This document shows positions 9,575 to 48,900 of a stretch of 64,000 bases of DNA, piece after piece; the first letter of the stretch is position 1; each line of letters opens with the position of its first letter. Location: contig OZ244160.1 of the NCBI GenBank assembly GCA_965216325.1, positions 2,208,001-2,272,000 of the forward strand. The letters run 5' to 3'. The notes under the pieces are model-generated. The model was not told where the DNA came from. It worked only from the letters and a program-made list of their open reading frames with translations, and made no database searches. Position numbers and translations under genes: made by a program. The DNA is from Coraliomargarita sp. GTDB taxonomy: Bacteria; Verrucomicrobiota; Verrucomicrobiia; Opitutales; Coraliomargaritaceae.

Positions 9575-9928
<354 letters not shown>

Positions 9929-14138: not shown

Positions 14139-14204
14139 AGTGCGCGATCTGTAAGGCACAGATAGTGAGGGAACAAGGCAGAAGTTTGCTCTTCTTTGGG
14201 GGTG

Positions 14205-14224
14205 AGTGGTCAAATTTGACCACT
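14205..14224. promoter_or_regulatory. Perfect 20-bp palindrome, candidate regulator site
   Basis: AGTGGTCAAA|TTTGACCACT between the divergent aroG and amtB genes. Confidence 0.5.
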
Positions 14225-14272
14225 TGTCATGCCAGAGTCATATTTTTCATAAAATCTCGGGATATTTCAAAT

Positions 14273-14288
14273 TGGCATGGTGGGTGCT
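14273..14288 (+). promoter_or_regulatory. Sigma-54 (-24/-12) promoter of amtB-glnK
   Basis: TGGCATGGTGGGTGCT has GG-N10-GC spacing upstream of a nitrogen-regulated operon. Confidence 0.65.
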
Positions 14289-14383
14289 TGGGTGGACCCA
14301 GATTCGTATTTAGTCGAATCACCAATCGAGCCGCAAGGCTCAGGACTCAACAACACATATATAAAAACCTAACACAACTAATC

Positions 14384-15826
14384 ATGAAGATTAAACAATA
14401 TCTACTCGCGCTGCTGCTAGGCTGTGTCGCTCTATTTAGTGCGTCGCCTGCAGTTGCAGAAGAAGAGGTCGATGAAGCGGCTGTTGCTGCTGCGATTGAA
14501 CTGTCGCTTGCGCCTGCGAAGGCTGCAGCTGCAGCTGGTGACGGTAACGCTGCCGATTATATCGCAATGGTCGAAGAGCAAGGTTTGGGTGCATACGCAT
14601 TCGACTTCTTTACGATCTCGATGCTCTGGACAGTGATCGCTGCTGCTTTGGTGTTCGTTATGCACCTTGGTTTCGCAACGCTTGAGGCTGGTCTGACGCA
14701 GTCCAAGAACACTGTTAACATTCTGTTCAAGAATGTATTCATTATCTGCATCGGTCTGCTTACATACGCTGCGGTTGGTTTTAACACTCACTACCCATGT
14801 GGCTCTTGGATCATCGAGAACGTGCTCGCTCTTAATGGACCACTTGGTGCTGGCAATGTGGACGACACTTGGGGCTACGGTGGCCTTAGCTTGGCAATGA
14901 CCGGCTATGGTGACTTCATCTTCCAGGCGATGTTCGCTGCAACTGCGGCTACGATCGTTTCCGGTGCGGTTGCTGAGCGTGTTAAGCTTACAAGCTTCAT
15001 GATTTTCGCTACGCTTCTTGTAGCATTTGCTTACCCAATGGTTGGTGCATGGCACTGGGGTGAAGGCTGGTTGAACCAAATGGAAAACCCATTCTACGAC
15101 TTCGCTGGTTCGACTGTGGTTCACGCGTTCGGTGGTTTTGCCGCTCTCGCTTGTGTGATCGTTCTCGGTCCACGTGCTGGCAAGTATGTTGACGGTCGCA
15201 TCAAGCCGATCCTCGGCCACAGCATGCCGCTTGCAACTATCGGTGTATTCCTCCTTTTCCTCGGTTGGTTCGGTTTCAATGGTGGTTCCGTTCTTTCCGC
15301 GAACCCAGCTGGTGTTGGTCTTGTATTTGTAACAACTGCTCTCGCGGCAGCTGCTGGTGGTCTTGCTTCCATTATCGTATCCTGGAGTTTCCTCAAGAAG
15401 CCTGACCTCTCCATGGCATTGAATGGTATTCTTGCCGGTCTGGTTGGTATCACAGCTGGTGCTGACGCAATGGGCCCATGGGCTTCTGTGATCGTCGGTG
15501 CAATCGCCGGTGCGATCGTTGTTTTCTCCATCATCTTCTTCGACAAGATCAAGATCGACGATCCAGTCGGTGCGATCTCTGTTCACGGTGTATGTGGTAT
15601 CTGGGGCACACTTGCAGTCGCGTTCTTCGGCGGTGCTAGCTTTATGTCTCAGCTTATCGGTGTGGTTGCTGTTTCTCTTGCAGCTTTCATCTTCTCCATC
15701 GTCGTATTCGGCCTGCTCAAGGTTGTCATGGGTGTGCGTGTCTCTCCTGAGGAAGAAGCTGAAGGCCTCGATATCGGTGAGCACGGTCAAGAAGCATATC
15801 CTGACTTCGCTGGTAGCGCTCGCTAA
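14384..15826 (+). CDS. amtB: Ammonium transporter
   Basis: FQAMFA, SGAVAER, DFAGSTVVH, WFGFNGGS, DDPVGAISVHG; signal peptide from ATG 14384. Confidence 0.97.
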   Translation: MKIKQYLLALLLGCVALFSASPAVAEEEVDEAAVAAAIELSLAPAKAAAAAGDGNAADYIAMVEEQGLGAYAFDFFTISMLWTVIAAALVFVMHLGFATLEAGLTQSKNTVNILFKNVFIICIGLLTYAAVGFNTHYPCGSWIIENVLALNGPLGAGNVDDTWGYGGLSLAMTGYGDFIFQAMFAATAATIVSGAVAERVKLTSFMIFATLLVAFAYPMVGAWHWGEGWLNQMENPFYDFAGSTVVHAFGGFAALACVIVLGPRAGKYVDGRIKPILGHSMPLATIGVFLLFLGWFGFNGGSVLSANPAGVGLVFVTTALAAAAGGLASIIVSWSFLKKPDLSMALNGILAGLVGITAGADAMGPWASVIVGAIAGAIVVFSIIFFDKIKIDDPVGAISVHGVCGIWGTLAVAFFGGASFMSQLIGVVAVSLAAFIFSIVVFGLLKVVMGVRVSPEEEAEGLDIGEHGQEAYPDFAGSAR

Positions 15827-15858
15827 TCCGCCAAGCCAATTAACCATCAACCATCTAA

Positions 15859-16209
<351 letters not shown>

Positions 16210-16248
16210 GCTTCTCGGACTCAAACATTACTCTCTTCTGAGTCCACT

Positions 16249-16282
16249 GCGGTCATCCCTTCGGGGGTGGCCGCTTCTTTTT
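16249..16282 (+). terminator. Terminator of amtB-glnK
   Basis: GCGGTCATCCC-TTCG-GGGTGGCCGC followed by T-rich tail. Confidence 0.8.
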
Positions 16283-16446
16283 GCAGGCCATCTTGCTCCT
16301 ACTCAAAATGGCGGAGGGGATTACGATTAAGAGTAGGATTATGATTAAGATGTGAGTGCAGGCGCATCTGCGCTACACCTTGAATTGTTTACCTGAATTT
16401 TTTTCAAAAAGGTGGAACTCTTCTTGGGGAGTGCTGACTACCATAG

Positions 16447-16548
16447 CATCAACCGTGGGTTGAATCATTTTTTCATATGAGTTAGTTAGGGTAACTAAGG
16501 TTAGCAGTGAGCCTCGTCTTCAATAGGAGTCGGGGCTCTTTGTTTTTT
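16447..16548 (+). ncRNA. Candidate sRNA, GUUAG family copy 1
   Basis: GGAAC-N17-GACTA upstream, 5' hairpin TCAACC/GGTTGA, GTTAGTTAGGGT core, AAUA-loop terminator with U-tract; no ORF. Confidence 0.6.
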
Positions 16549-16662
16549 GTGAGCTCGCTTGATGGTTGGCGGTCAATGCATAGCGCTTGTGGGCTGGATG
16601 TATGTCCTTCGAGTTTGTGTAGAATTTTTGGAACTCTTTTGCTGGGGCGCTGACTACCGTCG

Positions 16663-16764
16663 TATCAACCGTGGGTTGAATCATTTTTTCATATGAGTTA
16701 GTTAGGGTAACTAAGGTTAGCAGTGAGCCCCGTCTTCAATAGGAGTCGGGGCTCTTTGTTTTTT
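16663..16764 (+). ncRNA. Candidate sRNA, GUUAG family copy 2
   Basis: Same architecture as copy 1. Confidence 0.6.
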
Positions 16765-16830
16765 ATGAGCTCGCTTGATGGTTGGCGGTCAATGCATAGC
16801 GCTTGTGGGCTGGATGTTGGGCTTCTATGT

Positions 16831-16910
16831 GAATAAACGCGCTCCTCGATTTGAGAAACGCGTTATTGGGGTGGACCGGGGGATAGCCGATCCGAGGACT
16901 AAGAAGTTGC
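16831..16910 (-). ncRNA. Candidate C-rich sRNA, convergent with the tandem pair
   Basis: GGAAC(16942-38)-N17-GTCTA(16920-16) promoter; two stems pair fully (using G-U) only on the minus strand. Confidence 0.5.
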
Positions 16911-17210
16911 TAATGTAGACCATTAGCTGAGGCTAAGGTTCCATATTCGAATACGAAAATGCCCTCGAGGGGCGGGGCGATTAAGGGGCTTGAAGCTGTA
17001 TTAAAGCTATATGTTTGGTGTCATTAGGTTGGCGGGCAGGTTCCTGTCGATCTGTGGACTGCCGATGCCTGAGTTGAGTTTAATGTCGACGGGGCTGAGT
17101 TCGATGTGTGGCTCATTGGCCGCCAGTTCGGATGTCTCTATTGGCTCGTCGACGACTGCTTCTGGGCTAAAGGAAAATTCAATTACCACGGGTGCTTTGG
17201 AGAGTGTGCT

Positions 17211-25431: not shown

Positions 25432-26526
25432 ATGAAAAACAAAATCGCACTCGCATCCGCTTTCGTAGCGGCTTCCGGTCTCGCGACAGCGGAAATCGTC
25501 ATCAACGATTTCCTCTCTTTCGAAGGCTTCATCGATATGTCCTACAGCCACACTGACGTTGACAGTGACAACGTTGCTGTTGCTTCCGGTTCTGATAACA
25601 GCTTCGACATCGATCAGGTTGAAATCGACTGGTTGTTCGATTTCGACACAGTAACTGCTCAAATCGACCTCGCATACGAAGGTTCCGATGGTGATCAGGA
25701 AACTGCTGTTGAGCAGGCATTCGCTACTTACCACTTCGACAACGGTGGTGCGATCACAGCTGGTCGTTTCGCTTCCATGCTTGGTTTTGAAGCATTCGAG
25801 CCAACTGGTCTTTACCAGTTCTCCTTCGCTTACGACTACAGCATCCTTCCTGGTTATGCTCAAGGTGTGAAGTTCACCCACGAAAGCGACAACACTTTCT
25901 TCGGTATCTCCCTTCTTGATAGCTACACTGAGCGTTCCGACGATGATCCTTACAATGGTCGTCTTGGTGGCTCTGATGATTCCGACTGGGCTGTTGAAAT
26001 TGCGGGTGCCTACTACATGGACAATGGTCTGTCCTTCTTCCTGGGTGGTTACTATGAAGATACTGAAGGTCCATCTGTTGACGGTTCTGTTTACGCGATC
26101 AATGGTTATGTAACTTACGAAACAGGTGCATGGATTTTCGCAGCTGAGCTCAACTACGGTGACTCTGAAGTTGGCGCATACGGTCTTTCTGCTGAAGAAG
26201 GCACTCTGTATGATGGGTTCTCCATCTTCAGTGACGACGAAGAAGCGCTCTCTGGTTTGCTCATGGCTAACTACGCTTACAGCGACCAAGGCTCCATCAC
26301 TGCTCGTTTCAGCTATGAAGAACGCACTCTTGACGACACTGCTTTCGGTGACGCAGACGCAGAGCAATACAAGCTGACGCTTGCACACGGCTGGGCATTC
26401 ACAGACAACCTCTCCCTCGTAACTGAAATCAGCTATGTTGATGGTGAAGTTGACCTTGACGGTGGTCTTGAGGACGAAGACTTCGATAGCCTTACTGGTG
26501 CAATCGAAGTTATCTTCGCATTCTAA
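25432..26526 (+). CDS. Outer-membrane beta-barrel porin, paralog 1
   Basis: Signal peptide, amphipathic beta pattern, C-terminal Phe (IFAF), strongly biased codons. Confidence 0.88.
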   Translation: MKNKIALASAFVAASGLATAEIVINDFLSFEGFIDMSYSHTDVDSDNVAVASGSDNSFDIDQVEIDWLFDFDTVTAQIDLAYEGSDGDQETAVEQAFATYHFDNGGAITAGRFASMLGFEAFEPTGLYQFSFAYDYSILPGYAQGVKFTHESDNTFFGISLLDSYTERSDDDPYNGRLGGSDDSDWAVEIAGAYYMDNGLSFFLGGYYEDTEGPSVDGSVYAINGYVTYETGAWIFAAELNYGDSEVGAYGLSAEEGTLYDGFSIFSDDEEALSGLLMANYAYSDQGSITARFSYEERTLDDTAFGDADAEQYKLTLAHGWAFTDNLSLVTEISYVDGEVDLDGGLEDEDFDSLTGAIEVIFAF

Positions 26527-26552
26527 TCTGATTCGGATCTAGAATTCTCTTT

Positions 26553-26586
26553 GACGTCCTTCGGCTTCGGCTGGAGGGCGTTTTTT
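26553..26586 (+). terminator. Terminator of porin 1
   Basis: GACGTCCTTCGGC-TTCG-GCTGGAGGGCGTT followed by T-run. Confidence 0.85.
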
Positions 26587-26716
26587 GTGTGTAAACAAGC
26601 GTTCACTTGCCTGTTGTATAAAAAGCTTCACATTTTAACGTAATTTGGTCACTTTTGATCGTGGAAATAGGCGCTTGTACTTATTTTCGACAAACAAAAA
26701 CAAATACAGCTACACT

Positions 26717-27808
26717 ATGAAAAACAAAATCGCACTAGCATCCGCTTTTGTAGCGGCTTCCGGCCTCGCGACTGCGGAAATCGTAATCAACGATTTCCTC
26801 TCTTTCGAAGGCTTCATCGATATGTCTTACAGCCACACTGATGTAGATTCTGATATCAGCATCCTTGACGGTTCTGACAACAGCTTCGACATCGACCAGG
26901 TTGAAATCGACTGGTTGTTCGACTTCGACACAGTAACTGCACAGATCGACCTTGCATACGAAGGTTCTGATGGTGACCAAGAAACTGCTGTTGAGCAGGC
27001 ATTCGCAACTTACCACTTCGACAATGGTGGCGCGATCACAGCTGGTCGTTTCGCTTCCATGCTCGGTTTTGAAGCTTTCGAGCCAACTGGTCTCTACCAG
27101 TTCTCCTTTGCTTACGACATGAGCATCCTTCCAGGCTATGCACAAGGTGTGAAGTTCACTCACGAGTCTGACAACACATTCTTCGGTCTCTCTCTTCTCG
27201 ACAGCTATGTTGAGCGTGATCTGGACGATCCTTACAATGGTCGTCTTGGTGGTTCTGATGACTCCAGCTATGCATTTGAAATTGCTGGTGCATACTACAT
27301 GGACAATGGCCTTGGCTTCTTCCTTGGCGGTTACTACGAAGACATCGATGGTGACGGAGTAACTTCTGCTGATGGTGACAACTATGCAATCAATGCATAC
27401 GTGACCTTCGAAACTGGTGCTTGGATCTTCGCAGCTGAGCTTAACTACGGTGAAACCGAAGCAAACGCTTATGGTGTCGACTACGGTGTTGATCCTGTCT
27501 TCGGTAACTTGGAAATCGTTGGCACTGACGACGAGGCTGTGTCTGGTCTTCTTATGGCTAACTACGCATATAGCGACAAGGGATCTATCACAGGTCGTAT
27601 CAGCTATGAGTCCTTCGATTATGACAATGCGTTCGACGACGAAATCGAGCAAATCAAGTTCACTATCGCGCACGGCTACGCGTTCACAGACAACCTCTCT
27701 TTGGTAACTGAAATCAGCTACTCTGAGGCAACTGTTGAGAACAACCTCGGCCTTGACGAAGACATCGACACCCTTCTCGGTGCTGTTGAGCTTATCTTCG
27801 CATTCTAA
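26717..27808 (+). CDS. Outer-membrane beta-barrel porin, paralog 2
   Basis: Identical N-terminus to paralog 1 (MKNKIALASAF...); C-terminal IFAF. Confidence 0.88.
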   Translation: MKNKIALASAFVAASGLATAEIVINDFLSFEGFIDMSYSHTDVDSDISILDGSDNSFDIDQVEIDWLFDFDTVTAQIDLAYEGSDGDQETAVEQAFATYHFDNGGAITAGRFASMLGFEAFEPTGLYQFSFAYDMSILPGYAQGVKFTHESDNTFFGLSLLDSYVERDLDDPYNGRLGGSDDSSYAFEIAGAYYMDNGLGFFLGGYYEDIDGDGVTSADGDNYAINAYVTFETGAWIFAAELNYGETEANAYGVDYGVDPVFGNLEIVGTDDEAVSGLLMANYAYSDKGSITGRISYESFDYDNAFDDEIEQIKFTIAHGYAFTDNLSLVTEISYSEATVENNLGLDEDIDTLLGAVELIFAF

Positions 27809-27867: not shown

Positions 27868-29781
27868 GTGCGCCCGGCAGGGCGCACTTACTCGACAGTG
27901 ATTATTAATGGAAATTGATGAAAGTCTGTTACTCGCCCGGCAAGGGGAAGAGTTAGCCGAAGGGCAACTGCGGCATCGCGAGGTGTTCGTGGGAAGGAAG
28001 CCTATGGCAAAGCACTGGCCTGACGAACAGGAATCGCATAAGAGGCGTTTGCGTTGGATGAGGAGGCACAGAACTTCAAAGTCCGAAACTTGCCCGGAAA
28101 GCGCAGGCGTATATGCGGCAGGCATAAGTGTGACGGTAAGTGCGCATTACCCGGGGAGGTCTCTGAACATGCTACTGGCTACCAGTGTCGCGAGGCACTG
28201 GGATGTGTTTAGAGAAGTCAGCCGAGATCATAGTAGCCTGCACAGGTCGCGGGCGAAGGATCGAACCGAAGAACGACAACAAGGACTGAGACCATGAGCG
28301 AGAGCAGGGAAGCAGAAGCTGGCGGCACCACCCGTCAGACCCGCGTGGAAGGAACCGGACGGCATCTGGGGCGAGTCCATGCGGGCGCATCAAGCGCGCC
28401 ATCGGCCTTGGAGAACCGAGTTGCTCACCAATACGACCTGATTCGACAGGTGACCGAGCGCGGCAATATCAAAGCCGCGTGGAAGAAAGTGCGCCGCAAC
28501 GGCGGCAGAGCGGGCATCGACGAGCGCGACATGGAAGCCAGCCTGGCGTATCTAAATGCGCACTGGGAGCAGATCGAATCGCAGTTGCTGACCGGGAGGT
28601 ATCGTCCCCCGGCAGTGCTGCGTCTGGAGATCAAAAAGCCGGGCGGGGGCACCCGCAAGCTGGGCGTTCCCACGATCGTTGACCGTGTGCTGCAACAAGC
28701 GGCCTTGCAGATACTCAGCCCGATCTTCGACCCCCTGTTCAGCGAACACAGCTACGGGTTCCGCCCCGGACGCAGCGCAGGACAAGCGGTCGAACAGGCG
28801 CAAAAGTATCAGCACGAAGGCAAGAACTGGGTCGTGGACATGGACTTGAAGGCCTTCTTCGACGAAGTGAACCACGACCTGCTGATGGCGCGGGTGCGCC
28901 GTCATGTGAAAGACAAAGCCATGCTCAAACTGATCCGCTCCTGGCTTAAAGCTGGAGTGATGATCGGCGGGCTGGTTCAACCCATGGAGAAAGGCACGCC
29001 TCAGGGTGGGCCGCTCTCTCCACTGCTGTCCAACATCATGTTGGACGATCTGGATAAGGAACTGGAGAAGCGCGGCCATAGCTTCTGCCGCTACGCGGAC
29101 GACTGTAACATTTACGTCGCCACGCAGCGCAGCGGCGAGCGTGTGCTCGCTTCGATCACGAACTATTTGGAGACCAAACTGAAGCTGAAGGTCAACCACC
29201 TCAAAAGCGCGGTGGATCGTCCGAGCCGCCGGATCTTCCTCGGCTACAGCTTCACTGGGGGCAAGCATAGCCGCATTCGCGTGCCCAAACAGACGACTCA
29301 AAAGATGAAGTCCAAGCTGCGGAAACTCTGCCGCAAAGGGCGCGGGCGCAACCTGCGCCGCTTCATCGCTGAGACGCTCAATCCAGTGCTACGCGGCTGG
29401 ACGAACTACTTCCGCCTGAGTCAGACGAAAACCTTCGCCGGGGAACTGGACGAATGGTTGCGACATCGCTTGCGGTGCATCCTCTGGCGACAGTGGAAAC
29501 GTCCCCACACCCGCTACAGGAAGCTGGTGCAGCTTGGGCTCAGCCCCGAATGTGCCCGCAAAAGCAGCTACAACGGACGCGGGGCGTGGTTTAACAGCGG
29601 AGCCTCTCACATGAACCAAGCCCTCCCACGCAAAGCCTTCACGCAAATGAAGCTCCTATCTGTCTATGATTTGCTCGAATTGATGAGAGCCGAAATCCTT
29701 CTTCGGAACCGCCGTGATACGTGAACCGTACGTCCGGTGGTGTGAGAGCTTGGAGCGGGCAACCGCTCCCGGCTACTCGAT
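27868..29781 (+). mobile_element. Group II intron, class IIC
   Basis: 5' GTGCGCCCGGC directly after a terminator; D5 GAACCGCCGTGATACGTGAACCGTACGTCCGGTGGTGT with CGC triad; D6 ending CTACTCGAT. Confidence 0.93.
28294..29724 (+). CDS. ltrA: Group II intron reverse transcriptase/maturase (no endonuclease domain)
   Basis: R.LGVPT..DR, SYGFRPGRS, DLKAFFD, GTPQGGPLSPLL, RYADD, maturase GWTNYF. Confidence 0.96.
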   Translation: MSESREAEAGGTTRQTRVEGTGRHLGRVHAGASSAPSALENRVAHQYDLIRQVTERGNIKAAWKKVRRNGGRAGIDERDMEASLAYLNAHWEQIESQLLTGRYRPPAVLRLEIKKPGGGTRKLGVPTIVDRVLQQAALQILSPIFDPLFSEHSYGFRPGRSAGQAVEQAQKYQHEGKNWVVDMDLKAFFDEVNHDLLMARVRRHVKDKAMLKLIRSWLKAGVMIGGLVQPMEKGTPQGGPLSPLLSNIMLDDLDKELEKRGHSFCRYADDCNIYVATQRSGERVLASITNYLETKLKLKVNHLKSAVDRPSRRIFLGYSFTGGKHSRIRVPKQTTQKMKSKLRKLCRKGRGRNLRRFIAETLNPVLRGWTNYFRLSQTKTFAGELDEWLRHRLRCILWRQWKRPHTRYRKLVQLGLSPECARKSSYNGRGAWFNSGASHMNQALPRKAFTQMKLLSVYDLLELMRAEILLRNRRDT

Positions 29782-36847: not shown

Positions 36848-36920
<73 letters not shown>

Positions 36921-36926
36921 GAAACC

Positions 36927-37039
<113 letters not shown>

Positions 37040-38104: not shown

Positions 38105-38749
38105 CTATGCTTGGTGGAAGTCTTTCAGTTCGTTGCGCAGATGGGTGCGTGCGCGGTGGATCCAAGTTTTAACTGCGCTGAGGCTGGCGCCCAGGGCTTC
38201 GGCAATTTCATCGTAGCTGAGGCCCTGTTGCTGGAGCATGAGAATTGCGTCGCGCTGATTGTCTGGCAGTGTGGCAAGCGCGCGGTGAAAGGCTTCTTCG
38301 ATTTCTCTCGTATGGTTGCTTTCCTCGGCCTGCTGTTGCATGACAAAGTCGGTTGGGTCGATGAAGTCGAGTGGTCGGCGGGAGCTTTTGCGGTAGCTGT
38401 CGATGAGTCGTCGGCGTGCGACCGTAAATATGTAGGCGTTGAAGGTGCCTCGAGCTTGGTAGCGCCCGGCTGCTCGGTAGAGTTCTAGGAAGGTTTCTTG
38501 GGCGAGATCCTCTGCGTCGGCTCGGTTACCGACAGATCGATAGAAGAAGTTGATTAGGCGTGCCTGCCAGCGCTCGACGATGCTCGCGAAGGCGCTGCGG
38601 TCGCCGGCCGCGATCGCTCTTAGGCAAGCGCTATCAATGTCTTCTACGTTTGTAATTGAGGGTGCCGGAGTGGTCGCTGTCATGCCGGGGCGTGCTTCAG
38701 TGGATGTGTTCCATTGAAAGGCTGCTGATGTGGTCGAGTCTGCATTCAT
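38105..38749 (-). CDS. ECF RNA polymerase sigma factor
   Basis: GDRSAF, AEDLAQETF, LP..QR, SYDEIAE.LG....VK..IHRAR. Confidence 0.95.
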   Translation of the reverse strand: MNADSTTSAAFQWNTSTEARPGMTATTPAPSITNVEDIDSACLRAIAAGDRSAFASIVERWQARLINFFYRSVGNRADAEDLAQETFLELYRAAGRYQARGTFNAYIFTVARRRLIDSYRKSSRRPLDFIDPTDFVMQQQAEESNHTREIEEAFHRALATLPDNQRDAILMLQQQGLSYDEIAEALGASLSAVKTWIHRARTHLRNELKDFHQA

Positions 38750-47214: not shown

Positions 47215-47607
47215 TTACAGTGCGTCGCGAATCGCCGCGTAGATTTGCTGGGACTCTGCGAGGCTGCCGAGCTTGCCGACACGGATACGGATTTCGGTTT
47301 GGCCCTCTGCGAGCTGCTTGAGGCGAATGGTTACCTTCTCGTCGCCAACTTTACGGGCGTAAATCGTGATGGAAGATTCCTTGTGGAGCTCGCCGGTTCG
47401 ATAGTAACCGAGGTCGTCGATCTCTTTAATCGCAGTGCGGAATACGTTCGATGCTTGGCCGTCAACTGGGCCGCGGAAGTAACCTGCTTGATAGGTCGCG
47501 GTTTGTTCGAGTCCGGATTGCGGGTCGATTGCGACAGATGTTTGGCAGCCGGTGAAAACCACCGTGAGGAGCGCGAAGAATGTGACGATTGTTGCTTTTA
47601 CTTTCAT
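47215..47607 (-). CDS. Lipoprotein (DUF3568-like)
   Basis: Lipobox FTGC; T.IRIRVG..G...S..IY motif. Confidence 0.8.
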
Positions 47608-47646
47608 AGTTAGTGGCATTTAGAAACGATTTCTCACAAAGTGCAA

Positions 47647-48606
47647 TCAGAAGCTTTTATGATAAGTCACTTCGTTGCGGTCTTTGAACACCAGTTTGCC
47701 CTCTTGAGTTCCAAGGAAGATCAGACCTGTGCTTGAGTCGACTACATCCCCGATTCGGAAGCTGTCATTGTTGAGCATGACGCGCGCGTTGGCACCTGTG
47801 CGGACCATGCCAATCTGGGCGGATGACAGGAAGCCTGACACACTTGTGCGCAAGTCTCCTGTTGGTGCGGTCGGTTCCGGAGGAGTGCTCACTTTACTTT
47901 CAGTGATTGCGTTCTCGGGAGCATCATCAGCATCGGGAGCATGGGGAGTTGCCGGTTCAGCTGACTCGCCGGTGATCGCTTCGATGTCCGCAACGGGAAC
48001 CTTGTCGATATTGGCCTTGGCGTGCTCAATTGGATTCTTCGGTTGTTCAGGCGTCTCAGTTGCTGTCTGTTGGCTCGTTTCTGGGGCCGCTTCGGCTTGC
48101 ATAAACATTTCCCAGACCGCATAGCCGCCTCCGCCGAGAATCAGCATCAGGACGATGATCAATGCGATACTGGTGCCTACACTGCTACGTGCTTTAGTGG
48201 CTTCCGGTGCTGGCGCGGATGTGGCCTTGAGGCTCTCTTGCAAGTGTTGTTCGACGCCTGCTGGAGGGCGTTCGTCGAGTCGATTCTGTAGTCCGGGCGC
48301 GAGTTCTTGAGTAGGCTTCGTGCTGGGCGCTTTCGGGGCTGGTGGATTTTTGGGGAGTGGCGGCGTGGCTTTGGGGGCCGCTTCCTCGGGCTCAGGGACC
48401 GGAGTTGGAGACGAAATTTCGTTGGCCTTGATACTGTTCTCCTCGATCGGCTTCTTGGGAACTAGTTTGGGCAGTGGCTCGGGTGTGCTTGGCTCGGTTT
48501 TAAGGGGAGGAGTCAACTGAGCTTTGGGTTCATCTGAAGATTCCTTGGTTTGGCTCGGGCGCTGAAGTTTGAGCTTTGGCGGCTTATTGGCAGGGTCGTC
48601 ACTCAT
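47647..48606 (-). CDS. Pro-rich membrane protein with a GspB-like C-terminal domain (paralog of 17211-17879)
   Basis: C-terminal IGMVR.G...RVMLN...IGD.V...GL...VF.D.N...Y.K aligns by eye with the 17211 protein. Confidence 0.75.
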   Translation of the reverse strand: MSDDPANKPPKLKLQRPSQTKESSDEPKAQLTPPLKTEPSTPEPLPKLVPKKPIEENSIKANEISSPTPVPEPEEAAPKATPPLPKNPPAPKAPSTKPTQELAPGLQNRLDERPPAGVEQHLQESLKATSAPAPEATKARSSVGTSIALIIVLMLILGGGGYAVWEMFMQAEAAPETSQQTATETPEQPKNPIEHAKANIDKVPVADIEAITGESAEPATPHAPDADDAPENAITESKVSTPPEPTAPTGDLRTSVSGFLSSAQIGMVRTGANARVMLNNDSFRIGDVVDSSTGLIFLGTQEGKLVFKDRNEVTYHKSF

Positions 48607-48715
48607 AGATAATTGTGGCGAACCCTAAGCGTTGCTTAACTGCAGGCAAACTGAAATCCCCTAGTGTAGGCTGATTTAATAGCCTCTTTACAGGTTTATG
48701 GGCCAAATTGGGGCA

Positions 48716-48805
48716 CAATAAAGCCCGCCTCCCTATTGGAAGACGGGCTACTGCTAACCTTATTAACCCTAACTAACATACAGTGAATACTCACTGAACA
48801 TTGAA
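48716..48805 (-). ncRNA. Candidate sRNA, GUUAG family copy 3
   Basis: Minus strand reads GTTAGTTAGGGTTAATAAGGTTAGCAGTAGCCCGTCTTCC-AATA-GGGAGGCGGGCTTT; own 5' hairpin CAGTGA/TCACTG; GGAAC at 48833-48829. Confidence 0.6.
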
Positions 48806-48900
48806 TAAGAGTATATAAATCGGGCTTTGTTCCTGAGGATTACAGAAAAAATCACTTTTTTTGAAGCGACAGCTACAATTAGCACTGTTTGCATGCTATC

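Follow-up and report, generated by a model that had tools for sequence, protein, structure and literature searches.

The sigma-E-dependent small RNAs (sRNAs) of Proteobacteria include MicA, RybB and MicL, and to our knowledge every sigma-E regulon has an sRNA arm, a rule that comes from Proteobacteria and Fusobacteria. The Csr/Rsm RNAs form another class, with GGA motifs exposed in hairpin loops, and titrate a protein. In Bacteroides thetaiotaomicron the RRM protein RbpB binds the paralogous sRNAs FopS and GibS; FopS has a seed at its 5' end and housekeeping-sigma promoters, and it has been deposited in Rfam, according to its report (PMC11697453). Here we analyze a stretch of 64,000 nucleotides from the genome of Coraliomargarita sp. 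(contig OZ244160.1; the whole stretch is referred to as the window), in which two sRNA genes in tandem at 16.4-16.8 kb and a third one at 48.7 kb are predicted. The comparison of their sequences with those of related genomes supports that they belong to a real and new sRNA family with promoters of the extracytoplasmic function (ECF) type, the mechanism being left between base-pairing, which we favour, and the titration of a protein.

As in the case of MicA, RybB and MicL, and of the FoxI and FoxJ reported in Fusobacterium (PMC11005410), the predicted product is a short RNA that ends in an intrinsic terminator, its putative ECF-type GGAAC promoter resembles that of the sigma gene itself, and it may plausibly belong to an envelope-stress regulon as its non-coding arm, with possible feedback on the sigma factor. 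Unlike these RNAs, those of the window belong to another phylum and show no sequence or Rfam relationship to them, the conserved region is central and not at the 5' end, and neither an Hfq gene nor an outer-membrane-protein target was found. With FopS and GibS, as described in PMC11697453, the family shares the existence of multicopy siblings in an organism that has small RRM proteins and no Hfq, ProQ or CsrA, a conserved stretch that is single-stranded and precedes a terminator, and a polysaccharide-degrading host. The two groups are not homologous, and the RNAs described here have a 5' hairpin, a central core, a putative ECF-type promoter and no Rfam match. The likeness to the Csr/Rsm sponge RNAs is limited to the presence of repeated short purine-rich motifs in a small RNA and to the idea of titration, whereas here GUUAG and UAGG lie in an unpaired stretch, the core has no conserved GGA, and no CsrA gene was found. 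The architecture is that of a central core flanked by two helices, different from those of the sigma-E sRNAs and of FopS.

The tandem pair was detected as a duplication at positions 16413-16817 of the window, with a period of 216, 1.9 copies and 94% matches (score 738 in Tandem Repeats Finder), and the comparison of 16413-16601 with 16629-16817 gave 94% identity over 189 nt. Each unit can be read as a complete small transcription unit, in which a T-rich stretch, GGAAC, a spacer, GACTA, a 6-bp 5' hairpin, a U-rich stretch, the core and a GC-rich terminator follow one another (Table 1). The 30-nt core GAGTTAGTTAGGGTAACTAAGGTTAGCAGT is exact in both copies, and it appeared in none of 100 dinucleotide shuffles. 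The 17-nt spacers of the two promoters differ at 6 positions while GGAAC and GACTA are kept, and the sole difference between the terminator stems, a T in copy 1 and a C in copy 2, retains a G-U pair. The open reading frames (ORFs) that overlap the units are short, of only 31-54 amino acids (aa), and unconserved. In a blastn search of the whole genome (G000, 3.06 Mb; its contig is named C1) a third copy was found on the minus strand at 48724-48777, with 87.5% identity over 56 nt and an E value of 1.3e-8, and no fourth copy was detected with E below 0.1. This third copy has its own GGAAC, core and terminator, together with a different and equally paired 5' hairpin (CAGUGA/UCACUG), and orthologues of it are present in two congeners (loci L014 and L015). 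These results agree with the original prediction, made from the letters of the window, which had described two ORF-free GGAAC-N17-GACTA units of 216-bp period ending in core and terminator, with divergent spacers and a pair-preserving C/T change, and a diverged copy some 32 kb away. The best explanation is that the tandem pair is a recent duplication and the third copy an older paralogue within a new RNA family.

Table 1. Positions of the predicted sRNA genes, their parts and the neighbouring genes in the window, with the evidence for each.
Feature	Position	Strand	Evidence
UP-like T/A-rich stretch preceding the -35 box, copy 1	16398..16413	+	Read from the sequence; T-rich before GGAAC in most of 35 homologous promoters
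Putative ECF-type promoter, copy 1: GGAAC (16414-16418), 17-nt spacer, GACTA (16436-16440)	16414..16440	+	Sequence; 35 promoters of the family
Predicted sRNA copy 1, about 100 nt; start placed 6-8 nt past the -10 box, end in the U-tract	16447..16548	+	Fold -33.5 kcal/mol, z -4.45; covariance model match 16450-16546, 87.8 bits
5' hairpin of copy 1, UCAACC GUG GGUUGA, followed by AUCAUUUUUU	16449..16463	+	Folding; hairpins of relatives have other arms
Core of copy 1, poor in C, GAGUUAGUUAGGGUAACUAAGGUUAGCAGU; probably the functional site	16479..16508	+	Exact repeat; near-invariance across genera
Predicted intrinsic terminator, copy 1: stem (U-U mismatch, AAUA loop) 16509-16538; U-tract 16539-16548	16509..16548	+	Folding, covariation
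Putative ECF-type promoter, copy 2: GGAAC (16630-16634), 17-nt spacer, GACTA (16652-16656)	16630..16656	+	Read from the sequence
Predicted sRNA copy 2; core 16695-16724, terminator 16725-16754, U-tract 16755-16764	16663..16764	+	Fold -36.5 kcal/mol, z -5.12; covariance model match 16666-16762, 90.9 bits
Third, diverged copy with putative promoter: GGAAC 48833-48829, hairpin 48796-48781, core 48777-48750, terminator 48749-48722	48714..48833	-	z -4.63; covariance model match 48712-48808, 87.6 bits
amtB-glnK operon and its terminator (16249-16274), directly upstream of the tandem pair	14165..16274	+	Ammonium transporter and P-II families
Single-pass membrane protein of 319 aa, rich in proline, located about 100 nt downstream of copy 3; syntenic in most genera	47647..48606	-	Translation; no Pfam family
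DUF3568 protein, next gene of the syntenic block	47215..47619	-	Pfam PF12092, E 3.7e-15

The presence of the family in other genomes was also studied. In Rfam 15, the window gave five gathering-level matches (tmRNA, two tRNAs and two group II intron domains), none of them at 16.4-16.8 or 48.7 kb, and a search of 16200-17000 with a permissive E value gave 2.1 as the best E, with all the scores far under the gathering thresholds; the only Bacteroides family matched, BTnc231, scored 15.3 bits against a threshold of 80.4. A nucleotide search of 61 relatives produced matches in 12 genomes, all of the GTDB family of the window. When a covariance model (R1) built from the copies was searched in 101 genomes from 20 genera of this family, whose record titles are Coraliomargarita, Lentimonas or Puniceicoccaceae, matches were found in 70 genomes and 15 genera, often with 2-5 paralogues per genome at different loci. 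Within the genome of the window, a fourth match of the model at C1:865439 (E 5.3e-4) was rejected, having neither core nor promoter. Outside the family there were matches in 4 of 144 genomes of the order and 3 of 136 of the phylum, all with E of 2e-4 to 6e-4 or 4.6e-5, and we consider them at chance level because the non-member site just mentioned scores alike.

A scan of 185,579 species genomes with an exact pattern gave 27 stretches, of which 25 carry the titles Coraliomargarita, Lentimonas, Puniceicoccaceae, Coraliomargaritaceae, Opitutales or Verrucomicrobiota, and those of Bacteroidales and Poribacteria did not fit the covariance model. The same kind of scan in metagenomes gave 101 stretches; among 80 loci examined, 17 were strong matches of the model (at least 39 bits) and nine reached 22-25 bits, the other 54 showing no match at E up to 1e-4, and some of the pattern stretches were TTAGGG-like repeats. 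No sRNA of Coraliomargarita, Lentimonas or Opitutales was found in the literature searched, a coverage that leaves supplements and subscription journals outside. These data indicate that this predicted RNA family is new, homologous to no Rfam family, and restricted to a single family of marine Opitutales (Coraliomargaritaceae, or Puniceicoccaceae in record titles). They agree with the original proposal, which an Rfam match would have contradicted and which pointed to other Verrucomicrobiota for the search of homologues.

The conservation of a secondary structure was supported by several measurements. The three predicted RNAs fold more stably than random sequences (z scores in Table 1), none of 200 shuffles folding as well. 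In the tandem copies the terminator stem is GC-rich and 12-13 bp long, with an AAUA loop and UUUGUUUUUU behind it. In a model-guided alignment of 31 distinct sequences, 94.1% of the cells of the terminator helix are paired and 7 of its 10 pairs show double-sided changes; none of 500 shuffles was as high and slid registers gave only 47-66% pairing. In most members a hairpin abuts the core on its 5' side, with arms that vary in sequence and maintain the pairing (the 28 distinct sequences have 22 different 5' arms, for example CACUGA/UCAGUG, CACUU/AAGUG, CUAAUAGGU/ACCUAUUAG and GCAGUGAAU/AUUCAUUGU), and 16 of the 28 sequences had a stem score of at least 5, a value reached by 25% of the shuffles. 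Covariation thus backs both the terminator and the 5' hairpin as RNA structures. In a consensus scan, the 5' hairpin of the tandem copies with the AUCAUUUUUU behind it scored as terminator-like (16449-16472 and 16665-16688), and its possible roles are those of a pausing site, an early stop or a protein-binding module that only this type of paralogue has.

Between both helices lies a C-free single-stranded core that spans GAGUUAGUUAGGGU...AAGGUUAG and that in most genera is the 26-nt sequence GAGUUAGUUAGGGUUAAUAAGGUUAG. In it, GAGTTAGTTAGGGT and AGGTTAG show little or no variation from genus to genus, with variable flanks, and the stretch GAGUUAGUUAGGGU...AGGUUAG as a whole is near-invariant; in most members this core is unable to pair with itself. 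Length differences of 1 nt exist within the core among members (UAAUAAGG, UAAUAGG, UAUAAGG), and because of these insertions and deletions a conserved reading frame is excluded. Such an anatomy is the one expected from a trans-acting RNA with an exposed functional stretch. The GUUAG repeats had been regarded at first as the hallmark of the family, an idea that had to be abandoned, given that the 13 GTTAG clusters of the genome are mid-range among permutations of the same letters; the distinctive trait is instead the near-invariance of the whole 26-nt core.

Runs of five GUUAG followed by a terminator-like hairpin exist at C1 2020533-2020610 (+) and 2694577-2694680 (+), with no GGAAC promoter and no match of the covariance model, and the first of them is located in the 3' untranslated region of a gene whose product ends in YEF, like outer-membrane proteins. 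Intergenic simple repeats of the GATTAA/GATTAG type are present at 16319-16351 of the window and around C1 2694400-2694700, and many unrelated metagenome contigs align to the 35-bp stretch of this kind at 16319-16351.

The genomic context of the family was conserved in most of the loci examined. In 23 of 29, the RNA comes after xseA and a small ORF of 95-105 aa of no known family, whose end overlaps the promoter, and about 100 nt downstream of the RNA a gene on the same strand encodes a single-pass membrane protein of about 320 aa, rich in proline, with a DUF3568 gene after it in 11 of the 29. Copy 3 retains the downstream half of this block (Table 1), and the 319-aa membrane protein encoded there gave a weak, sub-threshold match to the NCBIfam entry 'anti-sigma factor' (24.6 bits against a cut-off of 100). 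The tandem pair represents a second type of paralogue, which in this genus is located after glnK, and a congener has the same glnK-sRNA arrangement (L002). In the genome of the window no gene of the same strand lies downstream of the pair, the genes found there being on the other strand, and the tandem arrangement itself was seen only in this genome and in a near relative present in sequencing runs. Other paralogues occupy unrelated loci, after a ClpB-type AAA+ ATPase gene or near UDP-glucose pyrophosphorylase and HhH-GPD genes.

As for the 95-105-aa protein, it ends in PYK/RxxDITCW and always follows xseA (C1 2509706-2509990 on the minus strand; loci L005, L011, L068, L070, L073 and others), and in most genera it is the last codons of its gene that overlap the sRNA promoter. 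The 105-aa ORF upstream (P0002) gave no match to any Pfam or NCBIfam family, and the nearest ESM Atlas clusters are unnamed.

The regular presence of a gene about 100 nt after the RNA would be expected if the latter were a cis-acting 5' leader or attenuator governing read-through into the genes for the membrane protein and DUF3568, the standalone copies being duplicates that lost their cargo. The arrangement of copy 3 and the imperfect U-tracts of many family members are also consistent with such a role. On the contrary, the tandem pair has no same-strand gene to control, the paralogues are spread over unrelated loci, and no conserved alternative pairing of the anti-terminator type was seen. 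In addition, an element aATAGnGTTTGCC is conserved between the terminator and the downstream gene, and because of it a separate promoter for that gene is suggested. This element and the orphan tandem copies disfavour a pure leader or attenuator role, which we regard as quite unlikely, even when read-through may still take place.

The conservation of synteny across genera also bears on whether these sequences are functional at all. A unit that is tandemly duplicated and has a distant copy could be a mobile or repeated DNA similar to a miniature inverted-repeat transposable element, or a fortuitous combination of promoter-like and terminator-like sequences, and the genome does contain other GTTAG-rich and GATTAA-type simple repeats. 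Nevertheless, there are only three copies in 3.06 Mb, neither terminal inverted repeats nor target duplications were seen in the sequence as read, and the conservation is strand-specific and accompanied by compensatory changes. In agreement with the original prediction, which had considered such an element as the outcome that would contradict it, we find the absence of a functional RNA most improbable.

The promoters of the family were compared with each other and with those of sigma genes. All 35 distinct upstream regions have a T-rich tract, (T/C)GGAAC, and about 19 nt later a -10 box that contains TCT/CTA. The genome of the window encodes eight proteins of the sigma-70 family, and one of their genes, at C1 2063954-2064556 (about 144 kb before the window), codes for an ECF sigma factor of 200 aa that scores 106 bits on the sigma70-ECF superfamily model, with SigW and RpoE as the best named matches. 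It overlaps the gene of an anti-sigma-like single-pass membrane protein, the sigma/anti-sigma pair spanning C1 2063954-2065245, and it is preceded by GGAACAAATCTAAGG-N-CGATCTA, a promoter kept in the orthologues with the conserved form GGAACAAATCTAAG-N-CGATCTA. The -35 box and the spacing are common to the sRNA promoters and to this conserved sigma-gene promoter, in line with the original proposal of a family driven by an ECF sigma factor. Both coincide as well with the sigma-E consensus of E. coli, which we take to be GGAACTT-N16-TCNAA. The regular expression GGAAC.{16,17}G[AT][ATC]?CT, written after both promoter sets had been seen, fits 15 of the 35 sRNA promoters and 111 of 4706 genomic GGAAC sites (2.4%).

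The distribution of the sigma gene is consistent with this likeness. It was present in 42 of 46 sampled genomes, the four genomes that lack it (genera g17 and g20) lack the RNA too, and 34 of the 42 with the sigma gene carry the RNA. A hand-computed hypergeometric test gave about 0.003 for this co-occurrence when genomes are treated as independent, there being in reality only two independent losses. Judging from their promoters, the members of this family seem to be under the positive control of an ECF sigma factor of the envelope-stress type, both the transcription of the RNA and its dependence on this sigma factor being inferred.

Two other descriptions of the promoters were discarded. A first regular expression, GGAAC-N15-16-TG-N1-2-TC, had 81 genomic matches against 129 for the reversed control and missed the promoters of the window. 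A sigma-54 promoter, suggested by TGGAAC-N5-TTGG in copy 1, was rejected, with the -12 GC missing or mis-spaced and the motif lacking both in copy 3 and in the relatives.

A further ECF-like promoter (GGAAC, 17 nt, GTCTA) aimed at the tandem pair lies within 16830-16942 on the minus strand, and after it come about 80 nt rich in hairpins, with AACGCG...CGCGUUUAUU at their end; it may be a small convergent or antisense unit, and it was not seen at the loci of congeners. Another gene of the sigma-70 family, ECF-like and coding for about 214 aa, is present at 38375-38581 (-) of the window, and its upstream region has no GGAAC...TCTA motif.

With regard to the mechanism, our preferred explanation, to which we concede about an even chance, is that the RNAs are base-pairing regulators belonging to an ECF regulon and that in some lineages they exert feedback on the sigma factor. 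According to it, the three genes would encode trans-acting regulatory RNAs of about 100 nt, each of them being transcribed independently from a promoter of the ECF type (a T-rich region, then GGAAC and, after about 19 nt, a TCTA-like -10 box) read by the RpoE/SigW-like sigma factor, and would form the non-coding arm of its stress regulon. The transcript would consist of the 5' hairpin, the unpaired and almost C-free 26-nt core and the intrinsic terminator, and the core, with no help from Hfq or ProQ, would base-pair with sites rich in C, U and A that are located at mRNA 5' ends. In at least two genera these sites would include the start region of the sigma mRNA, resulting in negative feedback. 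Whereas the family, its structure and the likeness of its promoters emerge from comparative analysis, the action in trans and the pairing are proposed from the anatomy of the RNA and from the following matches.

The start region of the sigma gene contains a perfect complement of 13 nt to the RNA core in genomes G012 and G074, and one of 10 nt in G010, and in each case it fits the core variant of its own genome (UAAUAGGUUAGUU in G012 and G074, UAAUAAGGUU in G010). Complementary runs of at least 7 nt at the sigma start were found in 8 of 30 genomes, compared with 1 of 17 for the start regions of rpoA, taken as a control. The -10 box of the sigma gene is followed in most genera by an in-frame ATG at 6 nt, so the sigma mRNA may be nearly leaderless. 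The start of the sigma mRNA is the best lead for a target, as a candidate in two genera.

Other candidates for partners of the core were rejected. The 9-mers CTAACTAAC appear 13 times in the genome, where around 23 were expected, and several of them are sense GUUAG runs of the other strand. CTAACTAACC immediately precedes the ATG of a gene for a Tat-signal Fe-S protein, an accessory gene present in only 3 of the 46 family genomes and not a conserved target. A sense copy of GUUAGUUAGGGUU...AGGUUAA in the rpsD-rpoA spacer, considered as a mimic of a protein site, was found in only 2 of 30 loci examined, both of genus g1, the genus of the window, where GUUAGUUAGGGUU lies right after the rpsD stop codon (C1 2595190-2595283). 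No conserved envelope-protein target was found either, and the A/C-rich leader of the porin-like gene of the window gave no good match.

Several results weigh against a base-pairing regulator under the control of this sigma factor. Regarding the targets, sites complementary to the core are no commoner in the genome than those for 6 dinucleotide-shuffled cores at four score thresholds, and no convincing conserved mRNA target appeared among the matches near ORF starts. In most genera the complementarity to the sigma mRNA does not exceed 6 nt (4-6 nt in many of them), an 8-nt match of G013 is lost in its congener G028, and a sigma target leaves unaccounted for the invariant first half of the core, GAGUUAGUUAGGG. 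Regarding the promoters, the regular expression given above is post hoc, having been written with both sets in view, and with a position weight matrix made only from the 26 sigma-gene promoters, the sRNA promoters fell outside the 40 best-scoring sites, a failure that we attribute to the overfitting of the matrix to the orthologous spacer of the sigma-gene promoters. Moreover, no RNA was found in 8 of the 42 genomes that carry the sigma gene, and the sole signal from an RNA library (run X1) was one 181-nt contig with a depth of 2.5 that extends from copy 1 through the spacer into copy 2, and which could be DNA or read-through, with no signal in runs X6 and X7. Finally, although the lack of any Hfq, ProQ or CsrA (PF02599) match in the genome of the window agrees with a pairing that needs no such protein, this absence is not absolute, with 24,000 bases of the genome outside the search.

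The same absence, together with the presence of RRM_1 proteins in this genome and in 45 of 46 genomes of the family, has to be considered for a second function of the core. Being C-free and containing (G/A)GUUA(G/A) and UAGG motifs, it could be the platform of a protein that binds single-stranded RNA, for instance a small RRM protein, so that the RNA would act as its sponge or partner and not through a seed. This would explain that near-invariance extends over 26 nt across genera, longer than a usual seed, and that complementary sites are not in excess and no target is conserved. There is a precedent in RbpB, which binds a family of paralogous sRNAs, although these Bacteroides sRNAs themselves act by base-pairing, as stated in that work (PMC11697453). 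Co-occurrence with RRM proteins turned out to be uninformative as a clue, with such proteins also encoded in the genera without the RNA (g17 and g20) and no phyletic link between them. Furthermore, none of the consistently adjacent genes looks RNA-binding, the 105-aa upstream neighbour having no family, and the lack of enrichment of GTTAG clusters in the genome does not favour this possibility either. We therefore see protein titration as a tentative alternative, doubtful at present.

Both functions could also coexist in the same molecule. In this combined and unlikely form of the base-pairing proposal, an sRNA independent of Hfq, ProQ and CsrA would have two jobs. The pairing of UAAUAAGGUUAG, the second half of the core, with the nearly leaderless 5' end of the sigma mRNA would shut the response off, whereas the first half, GAGUUAGUUAGGG, would dock an RRM-type protein or a second set of targets, and the sibling copies would tune the dosage.

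The bacterial group of the window includes important marine degraders of sulfated polysaccharides. A conserved and paralogous sRNA that seems tied to a sigma factor of the envelope-stress type gives a way into post-transcriptional control in this phylum, and it allows asking if the rule by which sigma-E regulons have an sRNA arm extends to Verrucomicrobiota. In a group that appears to be devoid of Hfq, ProQ and CsrA, the family offers a defined RNA, a promoter motif, a candidate sigma/anti-sigma pair and a feedback target amenable to testing. We consider it a solid novel family of predicted sRNAs.

Other elements of the window were observed along the analysis. Two tandem paralogous genes for porin-like outer-membrane proteins, both ending in IFAF, occupy 25432-27808, the first of them with an A/C-rich leader devoid of a Shine-Dalgarno sequence, and directly after this pair there is a group II intron (Rfam domains D1-D4, 27972-28261). 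The tmRNA gene at 9582-9928 (-) and the two tRNA genes at 36848-36999 (+), also recognized by Rfam, are ordinary.

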